A stretch of 32,000 nt of DNA, taken from positions 2,670,001 through 2,702,000 of the forward strand of contig OW818675.1 of assembly GCA_942493095.1 (NCBI GenBank). The letters run 5' to 3'. A model generated the notes under the pieces. That model saw nothing but the letters and a program-made list of their open reading frames with translations. It did no database searches and had not been told where the DNA came from. Source of the DNA: Candidatus Electronema halotolerans (GTDB lineage Bacteria > Desulfobacterota > Desulfobulbia > Desulfobulbales > Desulfobulbaceae). This document shows positions 5,315 through 26,237 of the stretch, piece after piece; position 1 is the stretch's first letter, and each line of letters starts with the position of its first letter. Made by a program: the position numbers and the translations under genes.

Positions 5315-6617
5315 CCTCCCGCTTGCTCATCCGCTCGTTGTCCGCAGGCACCAAGGAGATGGTGTCATTATAATCGGCCAGCAGCTTCCTGATCCCGACC
5401 GGCTGGTATTCCGTGGCCTCGTCCAAGGCAAGCTGGAGGTCGCACTGATCGCATTTGCGGTTGCAGAAGACTGGCTCGTAGGAGTCAGGCTCTTTATACG
5501 TGGTGATCACGCCCTCGTAATTGCGCAGCACCACTTTGTTGGTTGACCACGAGATCAGATAGTTAGGCATGACCGGAATCTTGCCGCCACCGCCAGGCGC
5601 ATCAATGACATAGGTCGGCACACTGAAACCGCTTGTATGGCCGATCATGCTCTCGATAATCTCAATGCCCTTGCCCACCGGCGTTCTGAAATGGGACAGC
5701 CCTTCTGAGAGGTCGCACTGGTAGAGATAATAGGGCCTGACCCGGTTAGCGACTAATTTATGCACCAGCGTCCGCATGATTCGAGGACAGTCGTTCACGC
5801 CTGCCAAGAGCACGGTCTGGTTGCCGAGCGGAATGCCTGCGTCGGCCAGTTTAGCCAAAGCGCGCCGGGCTGAGGCTGTCACCTCTCTTGGGTGATTGAA
5901 ATGAGTGTTGATCCAAAGGGGATGATGCTTCTTCAGCATCGCGACCAGCTCATCCGTGATCCGATAGGGCAGGACCACCGGCGTTCTGGTGCCGATGCGG
6001 ACCACCTCAACATGCTTGATCTTGCCCAGTTCGGTGAGGATGTAATCTAAATACTCATCCGAGAGCAGAAAGGGGTCGCCGCCGCTGAGAAGCACATCCC
6101 TAATTCTTGGCGTGCTGCGGATATAGTCCAAGCCCTGCTCAATGACTTCCCGTGACGGGATGCTGTCTCGGTCGCCAACCTTTCGCTTGCGGGTGCAGTG
6201 ACGGCAGTACATGGCGCAGACATTGCTGACCAGAAAAAGCACGCGGTCAGGATAGCGGTGGGTGATGCCCGGCACCGGACTGTCCTGATCCTCATGCAGC
6301 GGGTCAGCCATGTCTGCGTCAGCTATGTCAAGTTCCTTGATCGAAGGAACGGCCTGCATGAACACAGGATCATGTTCAAAATCATCCCGGTTGATCAGCG
6401 ATAAATAATACGGGGTGATGGAGAGAGGAAATTTCTCTATGGTCGTCCGAATCTGCTCTCTGATCTCCTCTTTCAGTTCCAAGTCAAGGAAATTTTCTAT
6501 ATCCTCCAGTGATCTGATCCGGTGCCGCACCTGCCATTTCCAGTCCTGCCACAGCGACTTAGAAACATCCACATCAATCCTTTCTGCTATTTCCTGCTGA
6601 TTTTCCGTATAAATCAT
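5289..6617 (-). CDS. ablA: L-lysine 2,3-aminomutase (radical SAM, KamA/AblA)
   Basis: Radical-SAM [11 protein letters not shown] (CxxxCxxC). KamA-type N-terminus [13 protein letters not shown]-terminal region [15 protein letters not shown]. The track start 6635 is TTG; ATG 6617 (MIYTEN...) is preceded by AAGGA 6 nt upstream and is preferred. Confidence 0.9.
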
Positions 6618-6702
6618 TCCAATCCTTTTGTTCAATGAATGCTTGAGCAGGACTGCTGTTCGCTATTTTAGTCGGAATAAGCAGTCTGCCGCCTATAAAC
6701 CG

Positions 6703-7797
6703 TTAGGTCAGATATTTTGCCCGCAAATTAGCGGACACGGCCTTGGTCATGTCCAGCACCTTCCGGGCGTGTTCCTGCCTGAGCGAGCCAGTGCCGCAGC
6801 TTGGCGTGATCAGCATCTGCCGGAGTAAATCCGCCTGCTCCCGGCCCGGCTTGATAAGTTTTCGTACCTGGTGCTCCCAGAGCAAGGTCAGCGACTCTGC
6901 GCTTTCCTTATCAATATCATAAGGTTTGCCAGTGGGAATACCGCCCCAGGCGAGAATGCCGCCCCGGTCCAAATAGCTGTGGACTTGCTCAGTCAATGCG
7001 GCAAGTTTGTCAAAAAAACTATAGGCATCAAAGCTAAGAATGTCAATTTTTGAGGAAAGCAGGACTTCCCATTCCGTGTTGGCACAGACATGAATTCCGG
7101 CCAGACCGCCTGCCGCGTGGATTGCCTCGGCGACTTCGTTGAGCATTTCCTGAACGGTGGCGTTGCTCACCGAGATGAACGCCGAGGAACCTAATCCGGC
7201 CAAGGCTGGTTCGTCAATAAAAACGATCACCTGCCCGCCGCAGCGTTCAGCAAGGAAGCGGGTCTGCCACGCCGCCTTCATGGCAATGCCTTTGACCACC
7301 ATTTCCCGGACTGTGTCGTCGTAATAACCCGCCCGGCCTTGGCTGTCCTTAATGCCGGTGAGCATGGTGAACGGGCCTGTTACTTGCCCTTTGACGGCAA
7401 CAGGCTGGCGGTTGCTTGCCTCAAGGTTCGCAGCAAACTGATACAGGCCCTCGGCCCGCGCCCGGCTGACTTGGAAGCGGGAGCCGAGCAGCTTGGCCGG
7501 GTCTTCCTGCACGGTCATGTAATCTTCATAAAAAGCCAGCATCTCGGCTTCAAAGTCCGGGCCGCCAGTGTCATAGAAGATGCGGCCTTCCGGCGCGGTC
7601 AGGTTTTCCTCGCAGATGCAGGGAATGCCTTCGGCAAACTGGGGCATCATCTGTTCAAGAGGATTGCCGGGCAGCTGCGGCCAGAGGGGAATCTCCGGCG
7701 TGGCCGTGAAAATCCAGTCAAGGGCCTGCTGGTGGTCGTTGAGCGGCAGAGAGCCGATCAGGACGGGCAGGCCGAAGGGGGTGAAATGATTTGTCAT
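6703..7797 (-). CDS. cobalamin-independent methionine synthase (MetE C-terminal)-like / URO-D-like superfamily protein
   Basis: 364-aa ORF, ATG 7797. GIHVCANTEW and LITPSCGTGS resemble the His/Cys zinc-ligand strings of the MetE catalytic domain (H.C ... CG). Exact function not assignable by eye. Confidence 0.6.
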   Translation of the reverse strand: MTNHFTPFGLPVLIGSLPLNDHQQALDWIFTATPEIPLWPQLPGNPLEQMMPQFAEGIPCICEENLTAPEGRIFYDTGGPDFEAEMLAFYEDYMTVQEDPAKLLGSRFQVSRARAEGLYQFAANLEASNRQPVAVKGQVTGPFTMLTGIKDSQGRAGYYDDTVREMVVKGIAMKAAWQTRFLAERCGGQVIVFIDEPALAGLGSSAFISVSNATVQEMLNEVAEAIHAAGGLAGIHVCANTEWEVLLSSKIDILSFDAYSFFDKLAALTEQVHSYLDRGGILAWGGIPTGKPYDIDKESAESLTLLWEHQVRKLIKPGREQADLLRQMLITPSCGTGSLRQEHARKVLDMTKAVSANLRAKYLT

Positions 7798-7868
7798 AAC
7801 AAAACCTTGCCAACTATTTCAAAAAAAGAATCATTCTTGCATCAGACATGATTGCAATGAGCAGATGT

Positions 7869-8288
7869 TTATCGCTGGAAATCGCTAAAGAACGCACCCC
7901 GAAAGAAACGTTTCCCTTTAACAAGCATAAATGCCCATGCAAGTATAGCAACGCCAGTGACCTGACTGTACGGAATGTTTAAATTTGCAAATTGCTCTGG
8001 AAAAAGCCCAGCAAATCCTAATGGCATTATCGCAACACCTATGTATGGACCAATATCTCTTCCGTTGAAGAAAAATATTCCTGCATAAATTATAATTATT
8101 ATTACCAGATAAGCAGAGAGTGAACCAAAAATGAGAACTGTTAGATATGTAAGCAGCAAGCCAAAACCAGTATATTTTTGTATTGAAGGCCCGAATTCGA
8201 CTAAATATGAGCTGATCAAGGCGGAGATAAAAATACTTGCTGACAAATCATCTACTGCTTTTGCGAAAGTTGTGCTTAATGGCTCCAT
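7869..8288 (-). CDS. small integral membrane protein (4-5 hydrophobic segments), hypothetical
   Basis: Track ORF 7869-8372 trimmed to ATG 8288 (MEPLSTT...). That ATG sits 2 nt after the vapC stop (TAGATATG) with AGGGA 7 nt upstream. Very hydrophobic (LLLTYLTVLIFGSLSAYLVIIIIIYAGIFFF etc.). AT-rich. Confidence 0.55.
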   Translation of the reverse strand: MEPLSTTFAKAVDDLSASIFISALISSYLVEFGPSIQKYTGFGLLLTYLTVLIFGSLSAYLVIIIIIYAGIFFFNGRDIGPYIGVAIMPLGFAGLFPEQFANLNIPYSQVTGVAILAWAFMLVKGKRFFRGAFFSDFQR

Positions 8289-8290
8289 AT

Positions 8291-8710
8291 CTATTCCCTG
8301 TTGTCTTGCTTGTTGTCTGATTTCAATATTTGAATATTCGGTGTTATTCCAGCCTGTCGTGCCTGTTTGCAAAAATTGCGGTCAAAAGTATGCAATGCAG
8401 CTTGACTGCAAGCTGCCAAGTGCATCGCATCGGCGAAATCAGCACCCAATGCATACCATGTTATTGCTTGCTCAAATTGCGCTGCATCTTCCAGCATCAC
8501 ATTTTCAATTTCCAGCAATAAGTTGAAAAACGTGAGCAGTTCGTCACGGCTTTTTCGATAACGTGAACGAAGCACCCATTCTGTTTCGAGCAGAACTGTT
8601 TTTGGCAGAAAAACCGTATTGTCAGCGAGTAATACTTCTGCTGAATCAGCCTGCTCTTTATCATCATCAGCAAGGAAACGAACCAATATGCAGGTGTCAA
8701 ACGCTATCAT
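8291..8710 (-). CDS. vapC: PIN-domain ribonuclease toxin VapC
   Basis: MIAFDTCILVRFL... (conserved Asp at position 5), then LLETEWVL and ADAMHLA acidic/PIN strings. ATG 8710 overlaps the vapB stop (ATGA). The track start 8740 would overlap vapB by 34 nt and is rejected. Confidence 0.85.
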   Translation of the reverse strand: MIAFDTCILVRFLADDDKEQADSAEVLLADNTVFLPKTVLLETEWVLRSRYRKSRDELLTFFNLLLEIENVMLEDAAQFEQAITWYALGADFADAMHLAACSQAALHTFDRNFCKQARQAGITPNIQILKSDNKQDNRE

Positions 8711-8958
8711 TTCTCCTCCGAATAATCCACTGGTGCGCAAAGCTGTTCATTGGATAATGACTGTCCTTTATGTTTAAGAAGACCGCGCAATTCCTCCATC
8801 CGACGTTTTTTTTTCGGCTCGTGCTTGGGATGAATCAGCAGTCCTGATGCAATGATGCTGATATTAAACTCCATTCCGCTTTGCCATCGCAGCATGTCCC
8901 GAATGGCTGCCGGGATATTGAGCTGTCCTGCTTCCGAAAGCTGCACCGTTGTTTTCAT
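8707..8958 (-). CDS. vapB: AbrB/SpoVT/MazE-fold antitoxin VapB
   Basis: 83-aa ORF MKTTVQLSEAGQLNIPAAIRDMLRWQSGMEFNISI... (swapped-hairpin looped-barrel pattern). Sits directly upstream of and overlapping a PIN toxin. Confidence 0.75.
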   Translation of the reverse strand: MKTTVQLSEAGQLNIPAAIRDMLRWQSGMEFNISIIASGLLIHPKHEPKKKRRMEELRGLLKHKGQSLSNEQLCAPVDYSEEK

Positions 8959-8980
8959 ACTTTCACAGTTAGTTAAGAAA

Positions 8981-9321
8981 TTAGCTGGCTATTCTGCCAT
9001 GCAGCACCGTCTTCAAATAATCCTGCGCAGCAACAAATTCCGGTTTCCTGCCGTTCATCTTTTTCATCAGCGGCAGCACGGATGCCCATGCAATCAGCAT
9101 ATCGTAATCCCGCAGCACTTCCATGATCATCCGATTCCGTGCGCACTGCTGCCCGACCAGCATCTCTTCCTCCACGCCGAGCAGAATCATGCCGCCTTGG
9201 AAGTTGGTCATTGCCGCGCTATTTTTTTGGCCAGCTGCTCAGGCCGGATGTCATCCCGCTTGAATTCCAGCCCTGAGTTTTCCCCATTGGCAATCAGTTC
9301 AAGCAGTTCTGTCTTCAGCAT
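8981..9321 (-). pseudogene. frameshifted and internally deleted AlbA_2 / Schlafen-like ATP-dependent DNA-binding protein gene
   Basis: Frame 1 from ATG 9321: MLKTELLELIANGENSGLEFKRDDIRPEQLAKKIARQ*. This has the AlbA_2 hallmark E.(L/V)EFK and stops at 9210-9208. It continues in another frame (track ORF 8981-9211) as MTNFQGGMILLGVEEE..., then jumps to a C-terminal-type string ARNRMIMEVLRDYDMLIAWASVLPLMKKMNGRKPEF. An A7 run (9222-9228) is the likely frameshift site. Total length is about 110 aa, whereas intact family members are several hundred. Confidence 0.6.
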
Positions 9322-10634
9322 GATTCGTGCCTCTCCAGCAACGCCACCGTCTCAATATGGTTAGTCTGGGGAAACATGTCGAGCGGCTGCAAGGCGGCCA
9401 CCTGAAATCCCTTGCCGCAGAGTACTGCCAGATCACGGGCCAGCGTGACAGGATCGCAGGAAATATAGATGATTTTTTCTGGCCTCAGCTCTGGCAGCAG
9501 GGCTGCGCTTTTGCCAATTCCAGCTCGCGGCGGGTCAAGCAGGATGATGTCCACCCGCTGCTGCTCCTTAACCATCTGCCGCAGGCTGGCGTGAACATCA
9601 GCCGCCTGAAAACGGGCCACAACTCTGGCGGCCTCAGCATTGCGCTTGGCCCAGCGCACACTTTCCGAGCTGCCTTCAATGCCAAAGACCGCAGCACCTG
9701 CCAAGGCTGACGGCACGGAAAAATTGCCCATGCCGCAGTACAAGTCAACAACGCTTTTTCCCTGAAAACTCCCGGCAAACTGTAAAACAAGCTGAATAAG
9801 TTGCTCATTCTGAGCGGGATTGACCTGCGAAAAGCAACCGCCTGACCAAGACAGCGTGCATTTCTGCTCTGACAGGATCATCTGCTGCATCAGCGGGTTG
9901 GCAGTGCCGCTGCGGGAATAGAGATGCTGAAAACCCTTTGCATTGGTGCAGCCAATCTGATCGATGCTGGCGCAGGCGGCCAGCTCCTGCACAACCGCTG
10001 CTGGAAGCCGCTGCCTGTTTTTGAGCGGCAGTACCAAGGTGATGCGTCGGTCCGCAGGCGAGCAATGCAGCTCCAGTTCCTGACAGATTTTCCCCAAACA
10101 ACCCAGCGCAGCAAGCTCGGCCAAGGCAATGTTGATCTCATCAGCCGCTGTCGGACAGGAGCTTATGGCAACAAAGTCATTGCTCTGCTTTTTGAAAAAG
10201 CCGAGCTGCCCGTCTGAGCTGATTTTCAGGCGCAGGCGATGCCGGTACGCCCATTGCTGCGGCGAGGGCAGCACCTCGGCAATGGCAACCGCAGACAGAG
10301 GGACATGCGCCCGCTGCATTGTCTCGGCAACAAGAGCCTGTTTGATCCGCAACTGCTCGGCATGACTGCTGTGCTGCAAATCGCAGCCGCCACATTCGCC
10401 ATAGAACGGACAGCGCGGCCCAATCCGTTCAGCGGAAGGTTCCAGCAGCTCGGCCAGCTCCGCCTCAATATAGCCGGACTTTTGCCGCAGCTCCCGCAAC
10501 GCCACGCGCTCGCCGGGCAGGACAAAGCCGGACATGAGCACCTGTCCGGCTTCTGTGCGGGCCAGCCCTTGGCCGCCCGCGATTATTTTTTCAATGGTGA
10601 CGACGTGCTGCGTCTCCTGAGCTGGCTTGCTCAC
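9315..10634 (-). CDS. rlmD: 23S rRNA (uracil-C5)-methyltransferase, RumA/RlmD family (TRAM + Fe-S + SAM MTase)
   Basis: 439-aa ORF (GTG start). Cys cluster CPFYGECGGCDLQH; SAM motif VVDLYCGMGNFS; LLDPPRAG; catalytic-Cys string YISCDPVTLARD. Confidence 0.88.
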   Translation of the reverse strand: MSKPAQETQHVVTIEKIIAGGQGLARTEAGQVLMSGFVLPGERVALRELRQKSGYIEAELAELLEPSAERIGPRCPFYGECGGCDLQHSSHAEQLRIKQALVAETMQRAHVPLSAVAIAEVLPSPQQWAYRHRLRLKISSDGQLGFFKKQSNDFVAISSCPTAADEINIALAELAALGCLGKICQELELHCSPADRRITLVLPLKNRQRLPAAVVQELAACASIDQIGCTNAKGFQHLYSRSGTANPLMQQMILSEQKCTLSWSGGCFSQVNPAQNEQLIQLVLQFAGSFQGKSVVDLYCGMGNFSVPSALAGAAVFGIEGSSESVRWAKRNAEAARVVARFQAADVHASLRQMVKEQQRVDIILLDPPRAGIGKSAALLPELRPEKIIYISCDPVTLARDLAVLCGKGFQVAALQPLDMFPQTNHIETVALLERHESC

Positions 10635-10790: not shown

Positions 10791-13700
10791 TTATTCTCCG
10801 AGCAGATGCAGCTCCACCCGCCGGTTTTTCGCCCGGCCTTCCCGGGTGCTGTTGTCCGCAACCGGATTGTCTTGGCCATAGCCTTTGCTGACCATCAGCT
10901 CTCTCCTGATGCCTTGGCTGATCAGGAAATTGCGCACTGCGTCAGCCCGGCGCTGCGAGATGACTTGGTTTCGCTCCGGGCTGCCCACGCTGTCTGTGTA
11001 GCCTGCAACTTCAAACTTCTGCTCCGCCGCTGCCTGCTTGATCAGGGCGGCGGCAGTGGTCAGGCTTTTCCGGGCCTCATCAGTCAGTTCCGCAGTGCCA
11101 AGGGCAAAATTGACCCCGGAAAGCACAATAGCCCTGCTTTCCTCGCAACCCATTTTATTGACCGTTGCCCCGTTCTGCGTTTCCGGGCAGAGATCCTCGC
11201 CGTCAGCCACGCCGTCGCCGTCCTTATCCGCTGCTGGCTCTTGGGCCGCCGGGGCAGCCTGTTCCGGGCTGTCAGTTTGCTCCTGCGATGCCACTGGCTG
11301 CTGCTTGAGCGCATTCAACTCCGCCTGCAACGATTCGATCTGCTTGCGGCTTTCTGTCAGCTCCGTCTTGAGCTGCTCCGAGTCATCCCCCTCCTGAACA
11401 GCGGCGGCTTCAGCACTTTGCGTCACTTGCTCCATTTTGGCCGCAGCCTGCTCAAGAGCGGCGGATTTTTCATCCAGCGCGGTTTTGAGCTGCTCTATTT
11501 CCTGGCGCAGATTTTCTTTAGCCTCAGTCAGCTCAGTCTCTTTTGCGCTCAGATTCTTCTTGAGACCGTCAATCTCCTCCTGCAAGGCCGCCGCATCCTT
11601 GCCTGCCTCCTGCTGGGCCTGCTGCTTCTTCTGCGCTGCAGCAAGCGCGGTCTCAGCTTCAGCTAATTTGCCTTGAACAGTCTTCAGCTCTTCCTGCAAG
11701 GCAGCGGTCTTGCCCTGCTTCTGCGCTTTTGCCAAGGCCGTCTCTTTTTCTGCCAGCGTTTTTTTCAGGCTGTCCAACTCCTGCTGCAAGGCCGTGTTTT
11801 GCCCTTGGTTCTTCTGAGCTTCAGCAAGTGCGGCTTCGCTTTTGGTCAGCTTGGCTTTAACCGTCTTCAGCTCCTCTGCCAAAGCAGCTATTTTTTCTTG
11901 GGCGGCTTTAAGCTGATCAGCTCCTGTCTGCATCTCCACAGACTGCGCTTCCAAAGCAGCTTCCTTTTCCGCCTGACTTTGCTTCAAGGCAGCAACTTCC
12001 TGCTGCAAGGCAGCGAGCTGCTCCTGGCTCTTCTGCGCTTGGGCAAGCTCGGCTTCCCTCTCGGCCAGCTTGTCCTTCACCGCCTGCAGGTCCGCAACTT
12101 GGACTTCCAAATCGGTATTTTTCTTTTTCGCCTCGGCAAGCTGTTCCTTTAAGGGCTGGAGATTGGCCACTTCCGCTTCCAAGGCAGCAACCTGCTCGGC
12201 AGCAGCCTGCACTTTTTCATGCACTGCCTCCAGATCAGCTAATTTTTTCTCCGCTTCCTGCTTCTGCTGCCGGGCCAGATCCAGCTCCTGCTCCATGTCA
12301 GCAGCCTTGCTTTCCAGTGCCGCAGCCTTCTCGTCCGCCGCCGTCAGTTTGCCTTTGATGTCCTCAGCCTGAGCATCAGCATCAGCAAGCTGGCCGCTCC
12401 GCTCTTCCAACTGCTGCGTTGTTGCTGCCAGCTCGTTATTAGCCGTCTCCAGCTCGCCGGTCAGCTTCTCCTGAGCGGCAGTCAGATCAGCAATTTTCTG
12501 AGTCAGCTCCGCAGCCTGCTGTTTTTTTGCCGCAATCTCGGTCTGCAATTTCTCGTTTTCCGCTCTGAGAACGGTGAGCACCTCATCCTTGCCGGTCAGG
12601 CTCTGCTCTAGACCACGCTCTTTTTCCTTTGCTGCGGCAAGACCTTCTTCGGCTGTCTGCAAGGCCGTCTTGGTTTCCGCAAGCTGCTTTTCCAGAGCTG
12701 CGGCAGCATCTGCTTTCTGTTGCAGCTCCTGCCGCAGCTGTTCGGCCTCTTTCTCCTGCACCTTTTTTTCCTGCATCAGTCCGGTCACTTGCGCAACCAA
12801 ATCCTGACCATAGGCCTTGGCCTCGTCAAGCTGCTCGCGGGCCGCCTCCAGATTGGCCTGCCTTTCGGCAATCTGCCCTTTCAGCTCGGCAATCCGCTGC
12901 TCTGAGGGCGCATATTCCTGCTCCTTTTTTTCGCCATAGCTGAACATGGCCTCAGCCTTCATCTGAGCGGCCTTGAGCGACTGCTCCAGCTCCTTGATTT
13001 TGACAGCAGATGCGACCAACAGACTTTTCTGGTTCTCCAGCTTGAGCTGCCGCTCATCAAGCAGGGACTGGAGCTTTTGCTGCTTGCCGCTGACTTCCTG
13101 CGCATGCTTCTCTGCCGCCGCCTTGGCGATTGCGCCCTGCTCCAGCACTTTTTCCAGCTCGGCGATTTTTGTCTTGGCCGCATCGGCCTGCGACTTGCTC
13201 TCCGCAGCCTGCTTCTTCTGCTCGTCAAGCTGGGCAGTCAACTTTTTAACTTCTCCGGCCAGCCGGTGCTGCTCCCCGGAAGTCTGCTTCAGTTTCTGCT
13301 GCAGATCAGCCAGCTCCGCCTGCCGCTGTTTCAGAGCATCCTGCGCATCTGCCCTGCCCTTCTCGGCTGCGGCTAATTTCTGCTTGAGATCAGCAAGTTG
13401 CTTGTCTTTCGCCGCTGCTGTCTGCTGCAAGGCACTGACCTGCTCGGTCAGCTTCTTGCCTGCCGCATCAGCCGCAGCCTGCTGCTGCTTGGCCTCAGCC
13501 AGCAGCTTCTCCTGCTCCGCAGCCTGCTTTTGCAGCTCGGCCAATTGCTTTTCTGCTGCGGCCAGCTTCTGCCCCTGCTCCTTGCCGTAGCTTGCCAAAG
13601 ACTCAGCCTTGAGTTCAGCCTTGCGCCGCGCTTCTTCAAGAGCAGCCTGCGTTTCCTTGTCAGCAGCAAGCTGCGCCGCTGTCTGCTCGACCTGGCGGTT

Positions 13701-16700
13701 CAGCTCAAAAATACGGCTCTCCGCCGCCTGCTGGGCCTGGCGCAGCTTGGCAATCTCCTCCTGCAAGGTCTGCTTCTTCTGATTCTGTTTACCCTTCCCC
13801 TCGGCAAGGCTGCTGGTCAGCTTGCTGATTTCCTTGGTGAGCTGCTGCTTTTCCAGCTCCAGCTTCTGCTGGACAGCCGCCAAGTCCTCCTGCCGCTGTT
13901 CCAGAGCGTCCTGCGCATCTGTTTTGTCCTTCTCGGCTGCGGCAAGCTGCTGCTTGAGATCAGCCAACTGCTTGTCTTTCGCCGCTGCTGTCTGCTGCAG
14001 CGCATTGATCTGTTCAGCCAGCTTCTCCTGCTCCGCAGCCTGCTTTTGCAGCTCGGCCAATTGCTTCTCTGCTGCGGCCAGCTTCTTTTCCTGCTCCTTG
14101 CCGTAGCTTGCCAAAGACTCAGCCTTGAGTTCAGCCTTGCGCCGCGCTTCTTCAAGAGCAGCCTGCGTTTCCTTGTCAGCAGCAAGCTGCGCCGCTGTCT
14201 GCTCGGCCTGGCGGTTCAGCTCAAAAATACGGCTCTCCGCCGCCTGCTGGGCCTGGCGCAGCTTGGCAATCTCCTCCTGCAAGGTCTGCTTCTTCTGATT
14301 CTGTTTACCCTTCCCCTCGGCAAGGCTGCTGGTCAGCTTGCTGATTTCCTCGGTGAGCTGCTGCTTTTCCAGCTCCAGCTTCTGCTGGACAGCCGCCAAG
14401 TCCTCCTGCCGCTGTTCCAGAGCGTCCTGCGCATCTGCCTTGTCCTTCTCCGCTGCGGCAAGCTGCTGCTTCAGATCAGCCAGCTGCTTGTCTTTCGCCG
14501 CTGCTGTCTGCCGCAGGCCATTGATCTGTTCAGCCAGCTTCTTGCCTACAGCCTGCTGCTGCCTAGCCTCAGCCAGCAGCTTCTCCTGCTCCGCAGCCTG
14601 CTTTTGCAGCTCGGCCAATTGCTTTTCCGCTGTGGCCAGCTTCTTTTCCTGCTCCTTGCCGTAGCTTGCCAAAGACTCAGCCTTGAGTTCAGCCTTGCGC
14701 CGCGCTTCTTCAAGAGCAGCCTGCGTGTCCTTGTCAGCAGCAAGCTGCGCCGCTGTCTGCTCGACCTGGCGGTTCAGCTCAAAAATACGGCTCTCCGCTG
14801 CCTGCTGGGCCTGGCGCAGCTTGGCAATTTCCTCCTGCAAGGTCTGCTTCTTCTGATTCTGTTTACCCTTCCCCTCGGCAAGGCTGCTGGTCAACTTGTT
14901 GATTTCCTCGGTGAGCTGCTGCTTTTCCAGCTCCAGCTTCTGCTGGACAGCCGCCAAGTCGTCCTGCCGCTGTTCCAGAGCGTCCTGCGCATCTGTTTTG
15001 TCCTTCTCCGCTGCGGCAAGCTGCTGCTTCAGATCAGCCAGCTGCTTGTCTTTCGCCGCTGCTGTCTGCTGCAGGCCATTGATCTGTTCAGCCAGCTTCT
15101 TGCCTACAGCCTGCTGCTGCCTAGCCTCAGCCAGCAGCTTCTCCTGCTCCGCAGCCTGCTTTTGCAGCTCGGCCAATTGCTTTTCCGCTGTGGCCAGCTT
15201 CTTTTCCTGCTCCTTGCCGTAGCTTGCCAAAGACTCAGCCTTGAGTTCAGCCTTGCGCCGCGCTTCTTCAAGAGCAGCCTGCGTGTCCTTGTCAGCAGCA
15301 AGCTGCGCCGCTGTCTGCTCGACCTGGCGGTTCAGCTCAAAAATACGGCTCTCCGCCGCCTGCTGGGCCTGGCGCAGCTTGGCAATTTTCTCCTGCAAGG
15401 TCTGCTTCTTCTGATTCTGTTTACCCTTCCCCTCGGCAAGGCTGCTGGTCAACTTGTTGATTTCCTCGGTGAGCTGCTGCTTTTCCAGCTCCAGCTTCTG
15501 CTGGACAGCCGCCAAGTCCTCCTGCCGCTGCTCCAGAGCGTCCTGCGCATCTGCCTTGTCCTTCTCCGCTGCGGCAAGCTGCTGCTTCAGATCAGCCAGC
15601 TGCTTGTCTTTCGCCGCTGCCACCTGCTGCAGCGCATTGATCTGTTCAGCCAGCTTCTTGCCTACAGCCTGCTGCTGCCTAGCCTCAGCCAGCAGCTTCT
15701 CCTGCTCCGCAGCCTGCTTTTGCAGCTCGGTCAATTGCTTTTCCGCTGTGGCCAGCTTCTTTTCCTGCTCCTTGCCGTAGCTTGCCAAAGACTCAGCCTT
15801 GAGTTCAGCCTTGCGCCGCGCTTCTTCAAGGGAAGCCTGCGTTTCCTTGTCAGCAGCAAGCTGCGCCGCTGTCTGCTCGGCCTGGCGGTTCAGCTCAAAA
15901 ATACGGCTCTCCGCCGCCTGCTGGGCCTGGCGCAGCTTGGCAATCTCCTCCTGCAAGGTCTGCTTCTTCTGATTCTGTTTACCCTTCCCCTCGGCAAGGC
16001 TGCTGGTCAGCTTGCTGATTTCCTCGGTGAGCTGCTGCTTTTCCAGCTCCAGCTTCTGCTGGACAGCCGCCAAGTCGTCCTGCCGCTGTTCCAGAGCGTC
16101 CTGCGCATCTGCCTTGTCCTTCTCCGCTGCGGCAAGCTGCTGCTTCAGATCAGCCAGCTGCTTGTCTTTCGCCGCTGCCACCTGCTGCAGGCCATTGATC
16201 TGTTCAGCCAGCTTGTCCTGCTCCGCTGCCTGCTTTTGCAGCTCGGCCAATTGCTTTTCCGCTGCGGCCAGCTTCTTTTCCTGCTCCTTGCCGTAGCTCA
16301 TCAGCGACTCAGCCTTGAGTTCAGCCTTGCGCCGCGCTTCTTCAAGGGAAGCCTGCGTTTCCTTGTCAGCAGCAAGCTGCGCCGCTGTCTGCCCGGCCTG
16401 GCGGTTCAAGGCGAAAATGCGGCTCTCCGCAGCCTGCTGGGCCTGCTGGAGCTGCGCAATCTTTTCCTGCAAGGACTGCTTGGTCTGATTTTGCTGATTC
16501 TTTTGTTGGGCAAGGCTGTCAGTCAGTTTGCTGATTTTTTGAGTAAGCTGCTGCTTCTCCTGCGCCAGCTGCTGCTGGACAGCCGCCAATTCTTCCTGCC
16601 ACTCCTCCAGAGCGGTCTGCGCATCTGTCTTGTCTTTCTCGGCAGCGGCAAGCTGCTGCTTGAGACCAGCAAGCTGCTTGTCCTTCTCCGCTGCCGCCTG

Positions 16701-18476
16701 CTGCAAGGCATTGATCTGCGCGGCAAGTTTTTTGCCAGCCGCTTCAGCCTCCGCCTGCTGCTGCCGGGCCGTCCGCAGCAGCTTCTCCTGCGCTTGCGCT
16801 TGCTGCTGATACTGGGCCTGCTGCTGTTCCAGGGCAGCCTGTGTATTTTCCTTGTCCTTCTGGACAGCAGCCAGCTGCTGCTTCAGTTCGGCTAGCTGTC
16901 TGCCTTTTTCCACCGCTGTCTGCTGCAAGGCGTTGATCTGCGCAACAAGTTTCTTATCCGCTGCTTCAGTCTGCTTTAGCTTCTGCTGATACTGAGCCTG
17001 CTGCTGTTCCAGGGCAGCCTGTGTATTTTCCTTGTCCTTCTGGACAGCAGCCAGCTGCTGCTTCAATTCAGCCAGCTGTCTGCCTTTTTCCACCGCTGTC
17101 TGCTGCAAGGCATTGATCTGCGCAACAAGTTTCTTATCCGCTGCTTCAGTCTGCTTTAGCTTCTGCTGATACTGAGCCTGCTGCTGTTCCAGTGCAGCCT
17201 GTGTATTTTCCTTGTCCTTCTGGACAGCAGCCAGCCGCTGCTTCAATTCAGCCAGCTGTCTGCCTTTTTCCACTGCTGTCTGCTGCAAGGCGTTGATCTG
17301 CGCAACAAGCTTCTTGCCTGCGGCCTCTGCTTGCGCCTGCTCCTCCTGCAACGCCGCATGCAGAGCTGCTTTTCCTTCCTGTTCTGCCGCTATCTTTCCT
17401 TTCAAATCAGACAACTGCTTATTTTTTCCCGCAACCGTCCGCTGGAGGGCGCTGACCTGTTCAGCTAGCTGCTTGCCAGCTGCTTCCGCCTGCGCCTGCT
17501 GCTGCCGGGTCAGGTGCAGTATTTTTTCCTGCTCCTCAGCCTGCTGCTGCAACTGGGCAAGCTGCTCCTGGGCAGCGGCCAGCTTCTCCTCCTGCTCCTT
17601 GCCATAGCGCATCAAAGCCTCAGACTTGAGTTCGGCCCGATGCAGCTCCTCCTCTACAGCTATCCGTTCCTTTGCCGCCGCAGAAAGTTGCGCCTCGGTC
17701 TGCTGCACTTGGTGCTTGAGTTCAAAGAGACGACCCGCTTCCGCCGTGCTGCTTTGCTGGCGTTCCTCCCGCAGTTTGGCGAGCTGCTCTTCCGCCGCCT
17801 GCACAGCCTGCTTCTGTTCAGCAGTCTTCTGTTCAAAATAAGTTATTTTCGCCTGCAAGTCAGCCGCTGCCGCTTGCTTCTGCTCCAGCTGCTGCCGGGC
17901 TTTCTCCAGCTCCGCATTCAAGCTGTTTTTCGCCTGATTGAGCCGCGCCGCCTCAGCCTGCGAACGGGCCAGATTCGCCTCACTGGCTTTCAGCTTGTCC
18001 AAGAGCTGACGGCTGGCCGCATTTTCACCCTGACTGAGGGCATCAATCTTGTCGTCCGCCTGCACCAGCTTCTTCTGCAAGGTCTTGATTTCGGAATCAT
18101 AATCAGCCTGCATCTGCTGCCATTCAGCCGCGGCCTCCTCCTGCCGGGTCTTCTGGTCGGCAATCTGGGTCTCCAGTTCACTGATTCTGCCACGCAATTG
18201 CAGCGACCACGCTTGTCTCGCCGTTGTCTGATCCTCAGTCAGCTCCTTGCGCAGCCGCCGCACCTCAGCCTTGGCCGCTTCCACCTCCTGCGCAGCTTGC
18301 TGCACTTTCCGCTTGTATTCTTCAGCCTGATTTTGCGGATGGGCGATCACTTCCTGCTTGCTGGCAGCAAGTGCAGCAGTGCCTTTCTTCAGACTGTCAT
18401 TATACGTTGCAAGTGCGATGTACGACAAGGCGACAGCAGCGGCGGCGAGAAGAGCTTTGCGCTTTGTGAATTGCAT
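10791..18476 (-). CDS. giant (2,561 aa) repetitive coiled-coil protein with N-terminal signal/anchor, TSP3-like Ca-binding motif and C-terminal OmpA/MotB peptidoglycan-binding domain
   Basis: Uninterrupted 7,686-nt ORF. ATG 18476 has GGGAG 9 nt upstream. N-terminus MQFTKRKALLAAAAVALSYIALATY. More than 2,300 residues are dominated by A/Q/E/K/L. Near the C-terminus: DKDGDGVADGEDLCPE, then GVNFALGTAELTDEARKSL...VAGYTDSVGSPERNQVISQRRADAVRNFL...NRRVELHL (OmpA_C signature). All long plus-strand ORFs across it are Leu/Ser/Cys-rich mirror artefacts. Confidence 0.93.
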   Translation of the reverse strand: MQFTKRKALLAAAAVALSYIALATYNDSLKKGTAALAASKQEVIAHPQNQAEEYKRKVQQAAQEVEAAKAEVRRLRKELTEDQTTARQAWSLQLRGRISELETQIADQKTRQEEAAAEWQQMQADYDSEIKTLQKKLVQADDKIDALSQGENAASRQLLDKLKASEANLARSQAEAARLNQAKNSLNAELEKARQQLEQKQAAAADLQAKITYFEQKTAEQKQAVQAAEEQLAKLREERQQSSTAEAGRLFELKHQVQQTEAQLSAAAKERIAVEEELHRAELKSEALMRYGKEQEEKLAAAQEQLAQLQQQAEEQEKILHLTRQQQAQAEAAGKQLAEQVSALQRTVAGKNKQLSDLKGKIAAEQEGKAALHAALQEEQAQAEAAGKKLVAQINALQQTAVEKGRQLAELKQRLAAVQKDKENTQAALEQQQAQYQQKLKQTEAADKKLVAQINALQQTAVEKGRQLAELKQQLAAVQKDKENTQAALEQQQAQYQQKLKQTEAADKKLVAQINALQQTAVEKGRQLAELKQQLAAVQKDKENTQAALEQQQAQYQQQAQAQEKLLRTARQQQAEAEAAGKKLAAQINALQQAAAEKDKQLAGLKQQLAAAEKDKTDAQTALEEWQEELAAVQQQLAQEKQQLTQKISKLTDSLAQQKNQQNQTKQSLQEKIAQLQQAQQAAESRIFALNRQAGQTAAQLAADKETQASLEEARRKAELKAESLMSYGKEQEKKLAAAEKQLAELQKQAAEQDKLAEQINGLQQVAAAKDKQLADLKQQLAAAEKDKADAQDALEQRQDDLAAVQQKLELEKQQLTEEISKLTSSLAEGKGKQNQKKQTLQEEIAKLRQAQQAAESRIFELNRQAEQTAAQLAADKETQASLEEARRKAELKAESLASYGKEQEKKLATAEKQLTELQKQAAEQEKLLAEARQQQAVGKKLAEQINALQQVAAAKDKQLADLKQQLAAAEKDKADAQDALEQRQEDLAAVQQKLELEKQQLTEEINKLTSSLAEGKGKQNQKKQTLQEKIAKLRQAQQAAESRIFELNRQVEQTAAQLAADKDTQAALEEARRKAELKAESLASYGKEQEKKLATAEKQLAELQKQAAEQEKLLAEARQQQAVGKKLAEQINGLQQTAAAKDKQLADLKQQLAAAEKDKTDAQDALEQRQDDLAAVQQKLELEKQQLTEEINKLTSSLAEGKGKQNQKKQTLQEEIAKLRQAQQAAESRIFELNRQVEQTAAQLAADKDTQAALEEARRKAELKAESLASYGKEQEKKLATAEKQLAELQKQAAEQEKLLAEARQQQAVGKKLAEQINGLRQTAAAKDKQLADLKQQLAAAEKDKADAQDALEQRQEDLAAVQQKLELEKQQLTEEISKLTSSLAEGKGKQNQKKQTLQEEIAKLRQAQQAAESRIFELNRQAEQTAAQLAADKETQAALEEARRKAELKAESLASYGKEQEKKLAAAEKQLAELQKQAAEQEKLAEQINALQQTAAAKDKQLADLKQQLAAAEKDKTDAQDALEQRQEDLAAVQQKLELEKQQLTKEISKLTSSLAEGKGKQNQKKQTLQEEIAKLRQAQQAAESRIFELNRQVEQTAAQLAADKETQAALEEARRKAELKAESLASYGKEQGQKLAAAEKQLAELQKQAAEQEKLLAEAKQQQAAADAAGKKLTEQVSALQQTAAAKDKQLADLKQKLAAAEKGRADAQDALKQRQAELADLQQKLKQTSGEQHRLAGEVKKLTAQLDEQKKQAAESKSQADAAKTKIAELEKVLEQGAIAKAAAEKHAQEVSGKQQKLQSLLDERQLKLENQKSLLVASAVKIKELEQSLKAAQMKAEAMFSYGEKKEQEYAPSEQRIAELKGQIAERQANLEAAREQLDEAKAYGQDLVAQVTGLMQEKKVQEKEAEQLRQELQQKADAAAALEKQLAETKTALQTAEEGLAAAKEKERGLEQSLTGKDEVLTVLRAENEKLQTEIAAKKQQAAELTQKIADLTAAQEKLTGELETANNELAATTQQLEERSGQLADADAQAEDIKGKLTAADEKAAALESKAADMEQELDLARQQKQEAEKKLADLEAVHEKVQAAAEQVAALEAEVANLQPLKEQLAEAKKKNTDLEVQVADLQAVKDKLAEREAELAQAQKSQEQLAALQQEVAALKQSQAEKEAALEAQSVEMQTGADQLKAAQEKIAALAEELKTVKAKLTKSEAALAEAQKNQGQNTALQQELDSLKKTLAEKETALAKAQKQGKTAALQEELKTVQGKLAEAETALAAAQKKQQAQQEAGKDAAALQEEIDGLKKNLSAKETELTEAKENLRQEIEQLKTALDEKSAALEQAAAKMEQVTQSAEAAAVQEGDDSEQLKTELTESRKQIESLQAELNALKQQPVASQEQTDSPEQAAPAAQEPAADKDGDGVADGEDLCPETQNGATVNKMGCEESRAIVLSGVNFALGTAELTDEARKSLTTAAALIKQAAAEQKFEVAGYTDSVGSPERNQVISQRRADAVRNFLISQGIRRELMVSKGYGQDNPVADNSTREGRAKNRRVELHLLGE
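13260..16790 (-). repeat. in-frame tandem repeat array, about 6.5 units of 558 nt (186 aa) or 516 nt (172 aa), inside the giant gene
   Basis: The string cttg(c/t)tgatttcctcggtgagctgctgcttttccagctccagcttctgctggacagccgccaagtc recurs at about 13822, 14338, 14896, 15454 and 16012, with a diverged copy at about 16528. Spacings are 516, 558, 558, 558, 516. Central units differ by only a few nt per 100 by eye. The 516-nt form lacks 42 nt, coding LAEARQQQAVGKKL (or an equivalent 14-aa register). Confidence 0.9.
16800..17320 (-). repeat. in-frame tandem repeat, about 2.9 x 180 nt (60 aa), inside the giant gene
   Basis: ctgctgatactg(g/a)gcctgctgctgttccag(g/t)gcagcctgtgtattttccttgtccttctggacagcagccag recurs at 16803, 16983 and 17163. 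The protein repeat is KKLVAQINALQQTAVEKGRQLAELKQQLAAVQKDKENTQAALEQQQAQYQQKLKQTEAAD. Confidence 0.9.
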
Positions 18477-18517
18477 GTCAGAAAACTCCCAAATTGCGTT
18501 TGTGTTTTATTATTATG

Positions 18518-20446
18518 TCAGGCGGAACAGGCTGGTTTCAGGATCAGGACGGAGAGCGGCGGCAGAGTCAGCTCAAGGGAGCTGTCCAAGCCGTGCGACG
18601 GCTCCGGCAATGTGCTGATCAGGCCGTTGCTGATGCCGCCGCCCCAATACACGGCCAGATCGCTGTTGATCAGCTCCCGCCACTGCCCGCCCTTGGGCAT
18701 GCCGATACGGTAACGCTCCCGGACGACTGGGGTGAAATTGCACACCGTCACCAGAACATCGTCGGAATTTTTTCCCCGGCGGATGAAGGAGAAAACCGAG
18801 TTGTCGGAATCATTGGCATTGATCCACGAAAAACCCTGCCAGTCATAATCGTTTTCCCAGAGCGCAGGCTCGGCGCGATAGACGTGGTTCAGGTCGCGGA
18901 CAAAACGCTGCATGCCCTGATGATTTTCCGCCTGCAAGGCCGCCCATTCCAGTCCCCGGTCATGGTTCCATTCCTGCCACTGGCCGAAATCGCCGCCCAT
19001 GAAGAGCAGCTTCTTGCCCGGATAACTCCACATGAAGCCAAAATAAGCCCGCAGATTGGCAAACCGCTGCCAGTCGTCACCCGGCATCTTGCTGACCAAG
19101 GAACCTTTCAGATGCACCACCTCGTCATGCGACAGAGGCAGGATAAAGTTTTCATGAAAGGCATAGAGCATGCCAAAGGTCATCTCATTGTGATGAAACT
19201 TGCGGTGAATCGCCTCATGACTCATATAGGTGAGGGTGTCGTGCATCCAGCCCATGTTCCACTTCAGGCTGAAGCCCAGCCCGCCCAGCCACGTGGGCCG
19301 TGAAACCATAGGCCAGGAGGTGGATTCCTCGGCAATGGTCAGCACGCCGGGAAACAGGCCATGCAGCACCTCGTTGGCCTTGCGCAGGAAGCTGATTGCA
19401 GCCAGATTCTCCCGTCCGCCGTGCTCATTGGGCAGCCACTCGCCTTCCTTGCGGGAATAGTCAAGATAGAGCATTGAGGCGACCGCATCCACCCGCAGGC
19501 CGTCAATATGGTATTTGTCGATCCAGAACAGGGCGTTGGAAATCAGGAAGGAACGCACCTCGTTGCGGCCATAGTTGAAGATCATGGTGCCCCAGTCCTG
19601 ATGCTCACCCTGACGCGGGTCCGCATGGGCGTAAAGATGGGTGCCGTCAAAATAGTTAAGACCAGCCCCGTCTTTAGGGAAATGGGCAGGCACCCAGTCA
19701 AGAATCACGCCAATGCCGTGCTGGTGGCACTGATCGACAAAATACATGAAATCCTGCGGACTGCCAAAGCGGCTGGTCGGGGCGAAAAAGCCCAGCACCT
19801 GATAGCCCCAGGAGGCATCCAAGGGATGCTCGGCAATGGGCAGCAGTTCGATGTGGGTGTAACCCATTTCAACTATGTATGGAATCAGCTCCTCGGCCAG
19901 CTCCAGATAGGTCAGCCACGTTCCATCCTCTTTCCGCTTCCACGAGCTGAGATGCACCTCGTAGGTTGAAATCGGGCTGTTCAATGATTGCCGCTCGGCC
20001 CGCTGCGCCAGCCAGTTGGCATCGTTCCACTGGTAGCTGTCCAGATTGACCGCCACTGAGCCGGTGGAGGGGCGCAGCTCCATAGCAAAGCCGTAAGGGT
20101 CTGACTTGTCAAACTGCTCGTTCTGCTGGGTGATGAGCCGATACTTGTAAACCGTCTGTTCCTGGAGGCCGGGGATGAACAAACTCCATATCCCGGAATC
20201 GCTGGAGTGCATGACATGCTCCTGGCCGTCCCAGCTGTTGAACTCGCCGATCACGCTGACTTGGCGGGCATTGGGCGCCCAGACCGCAAAGACAATGCCT
20301 TCCTGGCCGGCAAAGGAGACGAGATGCGCTCCCATCTTTTCATAGGCCCGCTCGTGCGTGCCTTCACCGATCAAATATTTGTCAAAATCACTCAGCCAGT
20401 TCGCAGGAACCGGCTGGCCAGGATAGGAAAGAGATGATGTGCTCAT
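18518..20446 (-). CDS. glgB: 1,4-alpha-glucan branching enzyme (GH13)
   Basis: GH13 branching-enzyme strings [48 protein letters not shown]. The track start 20458 is GTG; ATG 20446 (MSTSSL...) is preferred, and either is possible. The stop lies 41 nt upstream of the giant gene ATG. Confidence 0.93.
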
Positions 20447-20970
20447 CAGACAGGACACCTTGGGGCTGAACGCGGCAGGGCAGGCGGAATAAGACTGCTG
20501 ACTGCCGCTGAAATGGATGATGGAAAAAAACTATCCAGATAAATATAGCTGTTCTGGCGCGGGCTGCAAGTGCTTTTATCCTGCGCGTTCACAGAACGCA
20601 GCTTTCTGTTGTAGCGTGGCGCAGGGTACTTGTCATGCTTTTTCTGTCACTGCCCCGCACTTTTACTGGCAGAGACGCAGGACTGCCTCAATCTGCTCCG
20701 GGCTGCATGCAGGCGATGGGCAGGATGCGGCGTGCTTTTTTTTCTTCATACCCCGAAGGGCTGGGAAAGGCAAGGGATACTCATTGACAGGCTGGCTTTA
20801 TTGGTGGTGTTTTGCAGAAAAATACCAATGGCATTTTTATCCAATTCATCGAACGCGGGTAATTGCCGATGAAATTGACAGGAGGAAGAAAATCAATGAA
20901 AAACTGTTGCGAAAGACTGCGTAATCTGTGGTGATGGCGAGCTGTGCCTGATCAATGAAATGCTCTGTGC

Positions 20971-23392: not shown

Positions 23393-23469
23393 TGGTGCGC
23401 CCGGAGGGATTTGAACCCCCAACCCTCGGATTCGAAGTCCGATGCTCTATCCAGTTGAGCTACGGGCGC
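23393..23469 (-). tRNA. tRNA-Arg (anticodon TCG), CCA encoded
   Basis: Reverse complement GCGCCCGTAGCTCAACTGGATAGAGCATCGGACTTCGAATCCGAGGGTTGGGGGTTCAAATCCCTCCGGGCGCACCA folds as a cloverleaf. 7-bp acceptor stem GCGCCCG/CGGGCGC; anticodon stem TCGGA/TCCGA; loop CTTCGAA. Confidence 0.93.
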
Positions 23470-23605: not shown

Positions 23606-24592
23606 TCAAAAAATATAGCCTTCCTGCTTGTACCACTCGCCAGTGCGCTTCAGGCCCTCGTCCAAGTCAATCTTTGGCTGATAGCCCAGCTCGCGCTTGG
23701 CCTTGCTGATGTCAAAGGCCCGGTTCTGGCGGTACCAATCGACCCGGCGGGGGAAAATCGGCGGGGTGATGTTAAAGGGCTTGCAGGCTTTTTCGCAGAC
23801 ATGCCCGGCCAGCACCAGCGGCCAGACCGGATAGTGAGGAATTTTCACCTCCACGCCAAGTGCTTGCGCAGTTTTCCGCACCAAGGTTTCAATGCTGACA
23901 TATTCCTCATCCGCGATCAGATAGGCTTGGCCGCGTCCTTTGCCCGGCTCCATCGCCAGCATGAAGGCATCAGTCAGATTGTCAATATACAGGGGATGAT
24001 ACAAGGTTTTGCCGCTGCCGAACATCGGAAACACGCCCTTGCTTACCCGCCTGAAGATCATCTGAAAACGCTCCGGGTCGCCAGGGCCGTAGATGGCGGT
24101 CGGGCGGATGATCACCGTGTCCATGCCCTTGACGCAATACTCATTAACTATTGGTTCCGCCTCATATTTGGTCTTCTGGTAATAGTCGGCAGGCTGAATG
24201 GGCGCGTTCTCGTCCGCAGGCGGATTGTCAACATTGCCATGCACGCCGCAGGTGGAGCAGTAAACAAACTTCTTCACCTTGTGGGCAAAAGCGGACTCCA
24301 GCACGATGCGGGTGCCTCCCACGTTCACCTCGTCGTAATAGCTGTTCGGCACGTCCAATTCCCGGAAGGCGGCGGCCAGATGGTGAACCACATCCACGCC
24401 TTCCATGCAGCGTTCCACCACTGCTGGCTCAGTGACGCTGCCGATCACCACCTTGGCCCCCCAGGAGCTGATTTCATCGGTCTTCAATCCTTCCTGATAA
24501 TCCAGGCTGACCACCTTGTGGCCAGCTTCAATCAGCCGTTTGACCAAGGCTTTGCCGGTGAAGCCGGTGCCGCCTGTGACAAGCACTTTCAT
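23606..24592 (-). CDS. NAD-dependent epimerase/dehydratase (extended SDR family)
   Basis: MKVLVTGGTGFTGKALVKRL (GxxGxxG Rossmann motif) and YYQKTKYEAE (YxxxK). ATG 24592 overlaps the cytochrome stop (ATGA). Confidence 0.85.
   Translation of the reverse strand: MKVLVTGGTGFTGKALVKRLIEAGHKVVSLDYQEGLKTDEISSWGAKVVIGSVTEPAVVERCMEGVDVVHHLAAAFRELDVPNSYYDEVNVGGTRIVLESAFAHKVKKFVYCSTCGVHGNVDNPPADENAPIQPADYYQKTKYEAEPIVNEYCVKGMDTVIIRPTAIYGPGDPERFQMIFRRVSKGVFPMFGSGKTLYHPLYIDNLTDAFMLAMEPGKGRGQAYLIADEEYVSIETLVRKTAQALGVEVKIPHYPVWPLVLAGHVCEKACKPFNITPPIFPRRVDWYRQNRAFDISKAKRELGYQPKIDLDEGLKRTGEWYKQEGYIF

Positions 24593-26161: not shown

Positions 26162-26237
<76 letters not shown>

Follow-up and report, generated by a model that had tools for sequence, protein, structure and literature searches.

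A giant modular coiled-coil protein with a C-terminal OmpA-like domain, encoded directly after glgB in Candidatus Electronema halotolerans, as a candidate wall-tethered periplasmic scaffold of cable bacteria

Periplasmic tethers that combine a wall-binding domain, a long rod and a hydrophobic terminal anchor are known from Omp-alpha of Thermotoga maritima and from SlpA and OmpM, in which SLH domains are joined to coiled coils. CrvA of Vibrio cholerae, crescentin, FilP and Scy are long bacterial coiled-coil structural proteins, of which CrvA is periplasmic and most of the others are cytoplasmic, and HubP, FimV and TspA are giant acidic, repeat-containing polar landmark proteins with a peptidoglycan-binding domain. 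The gene considered here belongs to the cable bacterium Candidatus Electronema halotolerans and was found in a stretch of 32,000 nucleotides (nt) of contig OW818675.1, which is called the window below and to whose whole length the positions refer. The gene follows glgB directly and encodes a protein of 2,561 amino acids (aa), the giant protein, in which an N-terminal hydrophobic segment and a C-terminal OmpA-like domain enclose about 2,370 residues of helical, heptad-patterned sequence. By its profile matches, the giant protein is to be placed in none of the known tether families. As read from the sequence, it would be a wall-tethered periplasmic scaffold or tether that lies in the plane of the wall, and the probability of this reading is estimated at roughly 0.6. 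The gene and the parts of its product are arranged as follows.

10791..18476, minus strand: full coding region for the giant protein (2,561 aa and a stop codon), an uninterrupted open reading frame (ORF) with an ATG start
18405..18476, minus strand: putative export signal or signal-anchor, residues 1-24, with KRK, then ALLAAAAVALSYIALA, and A-L-A at -3 to -1
17487..18404, minus strand: unique N-terminal stretch of the rod, residues 25-330, which holds the first AELKSEALMRYGKE motif at residues ~281-294
16776..17315, minus strand: three tandem 60-aa repeats, residues 388-567, from the repeat analysis
13476..16508, minus strand: array of 186/172-aa modules, residues ~657-1667, with one AELKAESLASYGKE motif and one EGKGK hinge per module
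11301..13475, minus strand: unique C-terminal stretch of the rod, residues 1668-2392; it contains the conserved island SLTGKDEVLTV and, at residue 1847, a divergent copy of the motif
11232..11300, minus strand: Pro/Gln-rich flexible linker, residues 2393-2415, with a predicted local distance difference test (pLDDT) score below 50 at residues 86-96 of the AlphaFold2 model
11142..11231, minus strand: TSP3-like Asp-rich loop DKDGDGVADGEDLCPE (residues 2417-2432) and both Cys, from the sequence and from comparison with PDB entries and the alignment
10794..11141, minus strand: OmpA-like peptidoglycan-binding domain, with the Pfam match at 10821-11108

The giant protein shares with Omp-alpha, SlpA and OmpM the combination of a wall-binding domain, a coiled-coil rod and one hydrophobic terminal anchor. 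However, those proteins carry an SLH and not an OmpA-like domain, their domain order is reversed, they have no tandem modules, and they are about 400 aa long with a rod of about 50 nm; no sequence relationship to the giant protein was detected. Lpp and TolA domain II are likewise helical connectors of the periplasm in which peptidoglycan or an inner-membrane anchor takes part, but Lpp is a lipid-anchored protein of 58 aa that is covalently linked to the wall, and TolA has no wall-binding domain. The LPP, TolA and SLH profiles of Pfam did not match the giant protein, in which the lipobox Cys of Lpp is also absent. A C-terminal OmpA-like domain with the same fold and the same conserved residues is found in MotB, PomB, TagL, YiaD, Pal and OprF, and the topology of those in which a transmembrane (TM) segment and a linker precede the domain (MotB, TagL, YiaD) resembles that of the giant protein. 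In this group the domain is attached to a beta-barrel, to a lipid anchor or to a short TM segment with a linker, whereas in the giant protein it caps the rod of about 2,370 residues, and the NCBIfam equivalog scores of the giant protein were all far below the cut-offs. The closest solved structure is that of the Capnocytophaga gingivalis OmpA with TSP3 repeats (5wtl, 5wtp), where a TSP3-type Asp loop precedes the domain; here a TSP3-like one does so. CrvA, crescentin, FilP and Scy are functional analogies only; none of them has an OmpA-like anchor, and Scy has long non-heptad repeats. The scores against Rod_CreS (21 bits, cut-off 100), Filament (23.3, cut-off 40) and SMC (33-36, cut-offs 567-729) reflect composition only, and by these profiles the rod is neither of the crescentin/intermediate-filament nor of the SMC/Rad50 type. 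HubP, FimV and TspA bind the wall by an N-terminal LysM domain and hold their repeats in the cytoplasm past a TM helix, whereas the rod of the giant protein would be periplasmic and no second TM segment is present; a HubP-like arrangement with a cytoplasmic rod and a periplasmic anchor was rejected on this ground. The original prediction, made from the nucleotide sequence before any search, had named no characterised homologue, and the profile, phmmer and literature searches found none.

The gene is genuine. As proposed at the outset, its 2,561 codons form a single frame with a good ribosome-binding site, here GGGAG before an ATG start, and it lies 41 nt from glgB (the spacer runs from the glgB stop, which ends at 18518), and the 7.7 kb contain neither a stop nor a frameshift. 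The predicted mass is 281.5 kDa and the isoelectric point 5.4. Five residue types make up 72 % of the product (Ala 19.8, Gln 16.0, Glu 12.8, Leu 11.9 and Lys 11.6 %), only three prolines occur between residues 48 and 2393, and the only two cysteines (2430 and 2444) are both near the C-terminus, residues 1-2,429 being free of Cys. Its peptides include AELKAESLASYGK, IFELNR and FEVAGYTDSVGSPER. On the opposite strand, an ORF of 1,165 aa (13398-16895, plus strand) and several ORFs of 100-400 aa are also open. The 1,165-aa frame was rejected as a gene; it and the shorter frames look like shadows that the codon composition, repetitive and skewed between the strands (AT skew about -0.4), casts on the opposite strand.

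Judged by its heptad pattern and its structural model, the rod is an alpha-helical coiled coil. The best register was assigned to each 28-residue span, with the shuffled sequence as control. Position a was occupied by Leu (40 %), Ala (18 %) and Ile (11 %) and position d by Leu (35 %) and Ala (21 %); Leu made up 2 % elsewhere, and the remaining five positions were filled by Gln, Ala, Glu and Lys. The hydrophobic fraction at a and d was 0.686, compared with 0.587 ± 0.006 in the shuffles, which is about 17 standard deviations higher. Heptad periodicity with hydrophobic a and d positions thus extends over long helical stretches, with a shift of register every 45-190 residues. In the AlphaFold2 model of residues 886-1290, which cover about two modules (mean pLDDT 83), the chain is helical throughout and is broken only twice, over four residues each, at the two EGKGK sites; SYGK and AVGKK remain helical with pLDDT of 80-90. 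The helices from hinge to hinge comprise about 182 residues, or about 27 nm. The strong heptad signal, the confinement of Leu to a and d and the all-helix model bear out the coiled-coil rod of the original prediction, whereas its three helix breakers per repeat (AVGKK, EGKGK and SYGK) are reduced to EGKGK alone. A Foldseek search with the repeat model returned nothing significant, only generic long-helix matches (best E 0.16). With about 2,370 helical residues at 0.15 nm each, the rod would be about 350 nm long if straight, as had been calculated. This length far exceeds the width of any periplasm, that of the cable-bacterial ridges included, and makes a simple perpendicular strut implausible, so that the earlier objection to such a strut holds.

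Much of the rod is repetitive. At the DNA level, six copies of 558/516 nt lie at 13475-16508, five of them with 93-98 % nt identity and the sixth with 85 %, and three copies of 180 nt lie at 16803-17342. The corresponding protein units measure 172, 186, 186, 186 and 172 aa and are flanked by partial units (five or six repeats), and the Gly-containing elements of the large units are AVGKK, present three times, EGKGK, present five times, and SYGK. The two forms of the module differ by exactly 14 aa, which is two heptads, and the lengths 186, 172 and 60 are each a multiple of 7 plus 4. An exact two-heptad insertion or deletion would be expected if selection maintained the continuity of the heptads.

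The most conserved internal element of the family is the motif [AS][EQ]LKx[ED][AS][LM]xxYG[KR]E (AELKxExLxxYGKE). It is present in eight copies in the giant protein, spaced 172-186 residues inside the array, and in two copies about 197 residues apart in a fragment from Electrothrix AR5, and its position coincides with a discontinuity of the heptads. The SYGK element belongs to this motif and is not a mere helix breaker. A conserved motif every ~27 nm along the rod would suit a scaffold or a ruler that offers binding sites at regular intervals.

The only hydrophobic segment of the giant protein spans residues ~8-26 and is kept across the family, in agreement with the signal peptide or anchor that had been proposed. 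L17, Y19, I20, L22 and A23 are invariant in seven family members, all of which have Ala, Ser or Cys at position -3. Such a pattern fits a signal-peptidase site and also a conserved membrane anchor. Since there is only one hydrophobic segment, the rod and the OmpA domain must be on the same side of the inner membrane, which would be the periplasmic one. A lipoprotein was rejected because there is no Cys near the N-terminus.

At the other end of the rod, the helix stops near residue 2392 and is followed by the Pro/Gln linker, which is predicted to be disordered, and by the Asp-rich loop. Its alignment with the four TSP3 repeats of 5wtl is weak, and its D106, D108, D110, G111 and D114 are nearly invariant in an alignment of 39 sequences (A3). 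Relatives of the giant protein give faint matches to PF02412; the giant protein itself gives none in Pfam at E <= 0.001, where matches to OmpA and TSP_3 had originally been expected. The loop probably binds Ca2+ and is probably stapled by a disulfide between the two cysteines. The domain that follows has an OmpA fold. When the C-terminal 249 aa were scanned alone, it matched Pfam OmpA (PF00691) over model positions 2-98 of 98 with 77.6 bits (cut-off 27.2, E 9.5e-22), and it also matched PDB 5wtl with E 1e-25. The AlphaFold2 model of the C-terminal region, built with 39 homologues in the alignment, reached pLDDT of 94-98 in the domain and showed the beta-alpha-beta-alpha-beta-beta order. With this model, Foldseek found 5wtp at a TM-score of 0.84 and a root mean square deviation of 1.1 Å, together with OprF, YiaD, TagL and Pal. 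T183, D184, R199 and N240-R241-R242-V243 are invariant in the same 39-sequence alignment, and D184 and R199 are presumably equivalent to D271 and R286 of Acinetobacter baumannii OmpA, which contact diaminopimelate in the stem peptide. The canonical OmpA_C domain of the original prediction is therefore upheld, and it is not degenerate on the Pfam score, the pLDDT and the TM-score given above. A HMMER scan of the full-length protein did not report the OmpA domain, most likely owing to the biased composition of the rest of the protein and not to a degenerate domain.

Relatives were sought with both ends of the protein. With the N-terminal 330 aa, an exhaustive phmmer search of 1.84 billion representative proteins gave only five matches below E 0.001, all of them N-terminal fragments; those named are from Electrothrix AR3, Electrothrix AR5 and one metagenome-assembled genome (MAG) labelled 'Desulfobulbus sp.'. 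With the last 209 aa, the best matches were 100, 70, 63, 61 and 59 % identical and had coiled-coil sequence ahead of their Asp loop and OmpA domain. The C-terminal relatives are mostly cut by contig ends, and those named are from Ca. Electronema sp. TJ and from Ca. Electrothrix spp. AX1, GM3_4 and EH2. The N- and C-terminal homologous fragments found elsewhere are in the same frame as the giant ORF. Word-index searches with the full-length protein and with its N-terminal 330 aa returned no relatives, apparently because the list of 8,000 candidates was filled by unrelated low-complexity coiled coils. Two scans of metagenome contigs found none either, one with the motif, whose alignment was too short to be confirmed by tblastn, and one with N-terminal 8-mer patterns, which were too specific. 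At a contig of Ca. Electrothrix sp. AX1 (L082), a few kb downstream of the contig-cut OmpA fragment, a cluster tolQ-tolR-tolA-tolB followed directly by a TPR (CpoB-like) gene occupies positions 5275-10436, with no pal between tolB and the TPR gene.

The order glgB then giant gene is kept in three genus-level lineages, and the genes beyond glgB and downstream of the giant gene vary. Loci were read from Electrothrix AR5 (L083) and from a third lineage represented in three different metagenomes (L081, L084 and L086), and at all four the giant gene starts 43-57 nt after glgB. GlgB is 76-77 % identical among the three lineages and 59 % identical to GlgB of Desulfurivibrio, and in a Desulfurivibrio MAG the place after glgB is taken by another gene, an ORF of 633 aa (putatively malQ-like). 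A scan of genome contigs with GlgB gave, among the matches listed, at best 63 % identity, in unrelated phyla, and none with a giant neighbouring ORF. The protein of the third lineage has at least 1,140-1,190 residues and a separate 24-aa tandem repeat, which in all three scaffolds ends in a run of N (100 N were counted in L086).

L081, 9400-9760: 24-aa repeat QEKITGLEAQIAELQKKSGDLAAA, ending in a run of N
L084, 4150-4350: the same repeat, ending in a run of N
L086, 9440-9780: the same repeat, ending in a run of N

The unlike tandem repeats of separate lineages indicate that the internal repeats expanded independently, and with such lineage-specific expansions the length of the rod appears to be an evolving trait. 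A cable-bacterial family may be proposed whose members have an LxYIxLA N-terminus, at least one [LM]Kx[ED][AS][LM]xxYG[KR]E motif within a coiled coil and an OmpA-like domain at the C-terminus, and whose genes stand directly behind glgB; the giant protein shows all four features. Judged by the matches obtained, of which almost all with a name are from cable bacteria, the family appears to be restricted to the cable-bacterium clade. The failure of HMMER to report the OmpA domain and the short-read breaks inside the gene make the family easy to overlook in annotation, and it is probably under-called by automated pipelines.

These features are best combined into the following arrangement. The N-terminal hydrophobic segment would take the chain across the inner membrane or hold it there with the N-terminus inside, and everything past this segment would be periplasmic. 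The rod consists of lineage-specific tandem modules, here the 60-aa and the 186/172-aa repeats, each large module contributing an AELKxExLxxYGKE motif at a heptad break and one flexible EGKGK hinge, with a periodicity of about 27 nm. The Pro/Gln linker and the TSP3-like loop would lead to the OmpA-like domain, which would grip a peptidoglycan stem peptide non-covalently. Because the rod is far too long to stand perpendicular, it must run roughly in the plane of the wall or fold back at its hinges. Most likely it would run along the sacculus, where it could serve as a structural scaffold, a tether or a ruler with periodic docking sites. Several points weigh against this proposal. The number of repeat copies comes from a single metagenomic assembly of long reads, every relative is truncated or carries a scaffold gap, which leaves the giant protein as the sole full-length example seen, and the exact protein was not found in a collection of 15 billion protein sequences. 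The restriction to one clade leans on the detection of fast-evolving coiled-coil sequence and on metagenome fragments without taxonomy. Moreover, the AlphaFold2 repeat model is a monomer with a predicted TM-score (pTM) of 0.39, so that packing and oligomeric state are unreliable, and the N-terminal segment is compatible with a cleaved signal peptide as well as with a membrane anchor.

The possibility of folding back leads to a different role, in which the N-terminus would stay in the inner membrane, the rod would fold at EGKGK into antiparallel bundles of ~27 nm, and the OmpA domain would hold on to peptidoglycan. Like Lpp, TolA or Omp-alpha, the protein would then set or cushion the membrane-wall distance, or else determine how high the enlarged periplasm of the ridges is. 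Known periplasmic struts have a parallel architecture of anchor, coiled coil and wall-binding domain; a hydrophobic segment of 16-19 residues with its invariant YIxLA core would fit a retained anchor, and hinges recur every 172-186 residues. However, the residues at -3 and -1 are always small (A/S/C-L-A), as expected of a cleaved signal peptide, residues 25-330 and 1668-2392 have no EGKGK hinges, repeats that vary in length and number with the lineage would be odd in a fixed spacer, and the low pTM leaves the packing of such bundles unreliable. This folded-back strut is considered unlikely. A chain like that of spectrin, which had been offered originally as an alternative, would be shorter and elastic, each 186-aa unit forming a compact three-helix bundle bounded by AVGKK, EGKGK and SYGK. 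The three elements do recur in each full unit, but only EGKGK interrupts the modelled helix, the other two being helical with good scores, and the segments that they delimit measure 38, 77 and 71 residues, in contrast to the near-equal helices of the 106-aa spectrin repeat. Since the helices are of about 182 residues and neither Pfam (spectrin or any other bundle family) nor Foldseek gave a significant match, this alternative is regarded as highly improbable.

An equally improbable explanation is that the array was mis-assembled or expanded, or that the ORF is a non-functional low-complexity remnant. Five copies of 558/516 nt with 93-98 % identity are hard to assemble, the short-read relatives all break or carry gaps within the repeats, and the exact protein is missing from the protein collection. 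Nevertheless, the genome of Ca. E. halotolerans, to whose proteins (CAK8722293 to CAK8722390) six other proteins of the window are identical, is a circular MAG; Flye was used for the assembly of the Nanopore reads, Racon, Medaka and Illumina reads served for polishing, and the single-nucleotide polymorphism rate is below 0.1 % (PMC10030654). With a circular long-read assembly, an artefact of short-read assembly is much less of a concern. The frame is moreover open over 7.7 kb with the heptad phase preserved, the exact 14-aa indel included, and conservation across three lineages extends to both termini, the motif and the synteny. Finally, the rod could belong to motility or to cell junctions, as a wall-anchored gliding track, an elastic link or a part of the septal junctions that hold the cells of the filament together. 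Cable bacteria glide, the named relatives come from such filamentous, gliding organisms, and the protein is built as a long, periodic rod with a wall anchor. The neighbourhood of the giant gene is free of motility and septal genes at every locus read, though, and the profile searches gave no similarity at family level to known proteins of gliding or septal junctions, which makes this role very unlikely.

The wall-tethered scaffold is of interest in view of the envelope in which it would act. Cable bacteria conduct electrons over centimetres via periplasmic fibres, and a three- or four-stranded coiled coil is, by our own estimate, about 3 nm thick. The conductive fibres lie on a polysaccharide layer, probably peptidoglycan, which also holds them together (PMC8238962), they contain strand components 3.1 nm thick (PMC11976967), and a protein-strand matrix embeds nickel nanoribbons (bioRxiv 10.1101/2025.10.10.681601). 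The giant protein might be a part or template of the conduction apparatus, either as a thin protein strand of the fibre or cartwheel or as a tether of the fibres on the peptidoglycan 'basal sheath', but this is quite unlikely; if it were true, the motif at every ~27 nm would position fibre components. The cable-bacteria literature that was searched names no protein for the protein parts of the fibres, and a search of it with OmpA or coiled coil gave no description of the giant protein. With its clade-limited appearance, its wall anchor and its rod form, the giant protein is a reasonable but unproven candidate for organising the cable-bacterial envelope. If it is unrelated to conduction, it would be an unusually large 'periskeletal' periplasmic protein. 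Elsewhere in the window (24589-26085, minus strand), a gene whose 498-aa product is a multihaem c-type cytochrome matching Cytochrome_C7 and c3 (CAK8722360.1, 'tetrahaem cytochrome domain-containing protein') adjoins an NAD-dependent epimerase gene; it may matter for cable-bacterial electron transfer and is unlinked to the giant gene.

The immediate surroundings of the giant gene on the upstream side are listed below.

18486..18490, minus strand: ribosome-binding site GGGAG, 9 nt before the ATG, read from the sequence
18512..18541, minus strand: putative sigma-70-like promoter, CTGAAA-18-CATAAT with TG in front, overlapping the 3' end of glgB, on consensus match alone
18518..20458, minus strand: glgB, the upstream neighbour and a separate gene, with Pfam CBM_48, alpha-amylase and Alpha-amylase_C domains

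The promoter and terminator scans of the window gave weak consensus hints only. No terminator-like site was found between glgB and the giant gene, and co-transcription of the two genes is possible. The downstream gene (9315-10634) encodes a TrmA/RlmD-type methyltransferase according to Pfam. Further off, genes for AHJR-like and RusA-like nucleases (1742-2874, minus strand) lie in a low-GC patch (45 %), and a second such patch (8001-9000, 42 %, in the stretch 7869-9364) holds two ORFs without Pfam matches; the two patches may have been left behind by mobile elements. Genes for two tRNAs, each scoring about 74 bits against Rfam RF00005, were located at 23396-23469 on the minus and at 26162-26234 on the plus strand.

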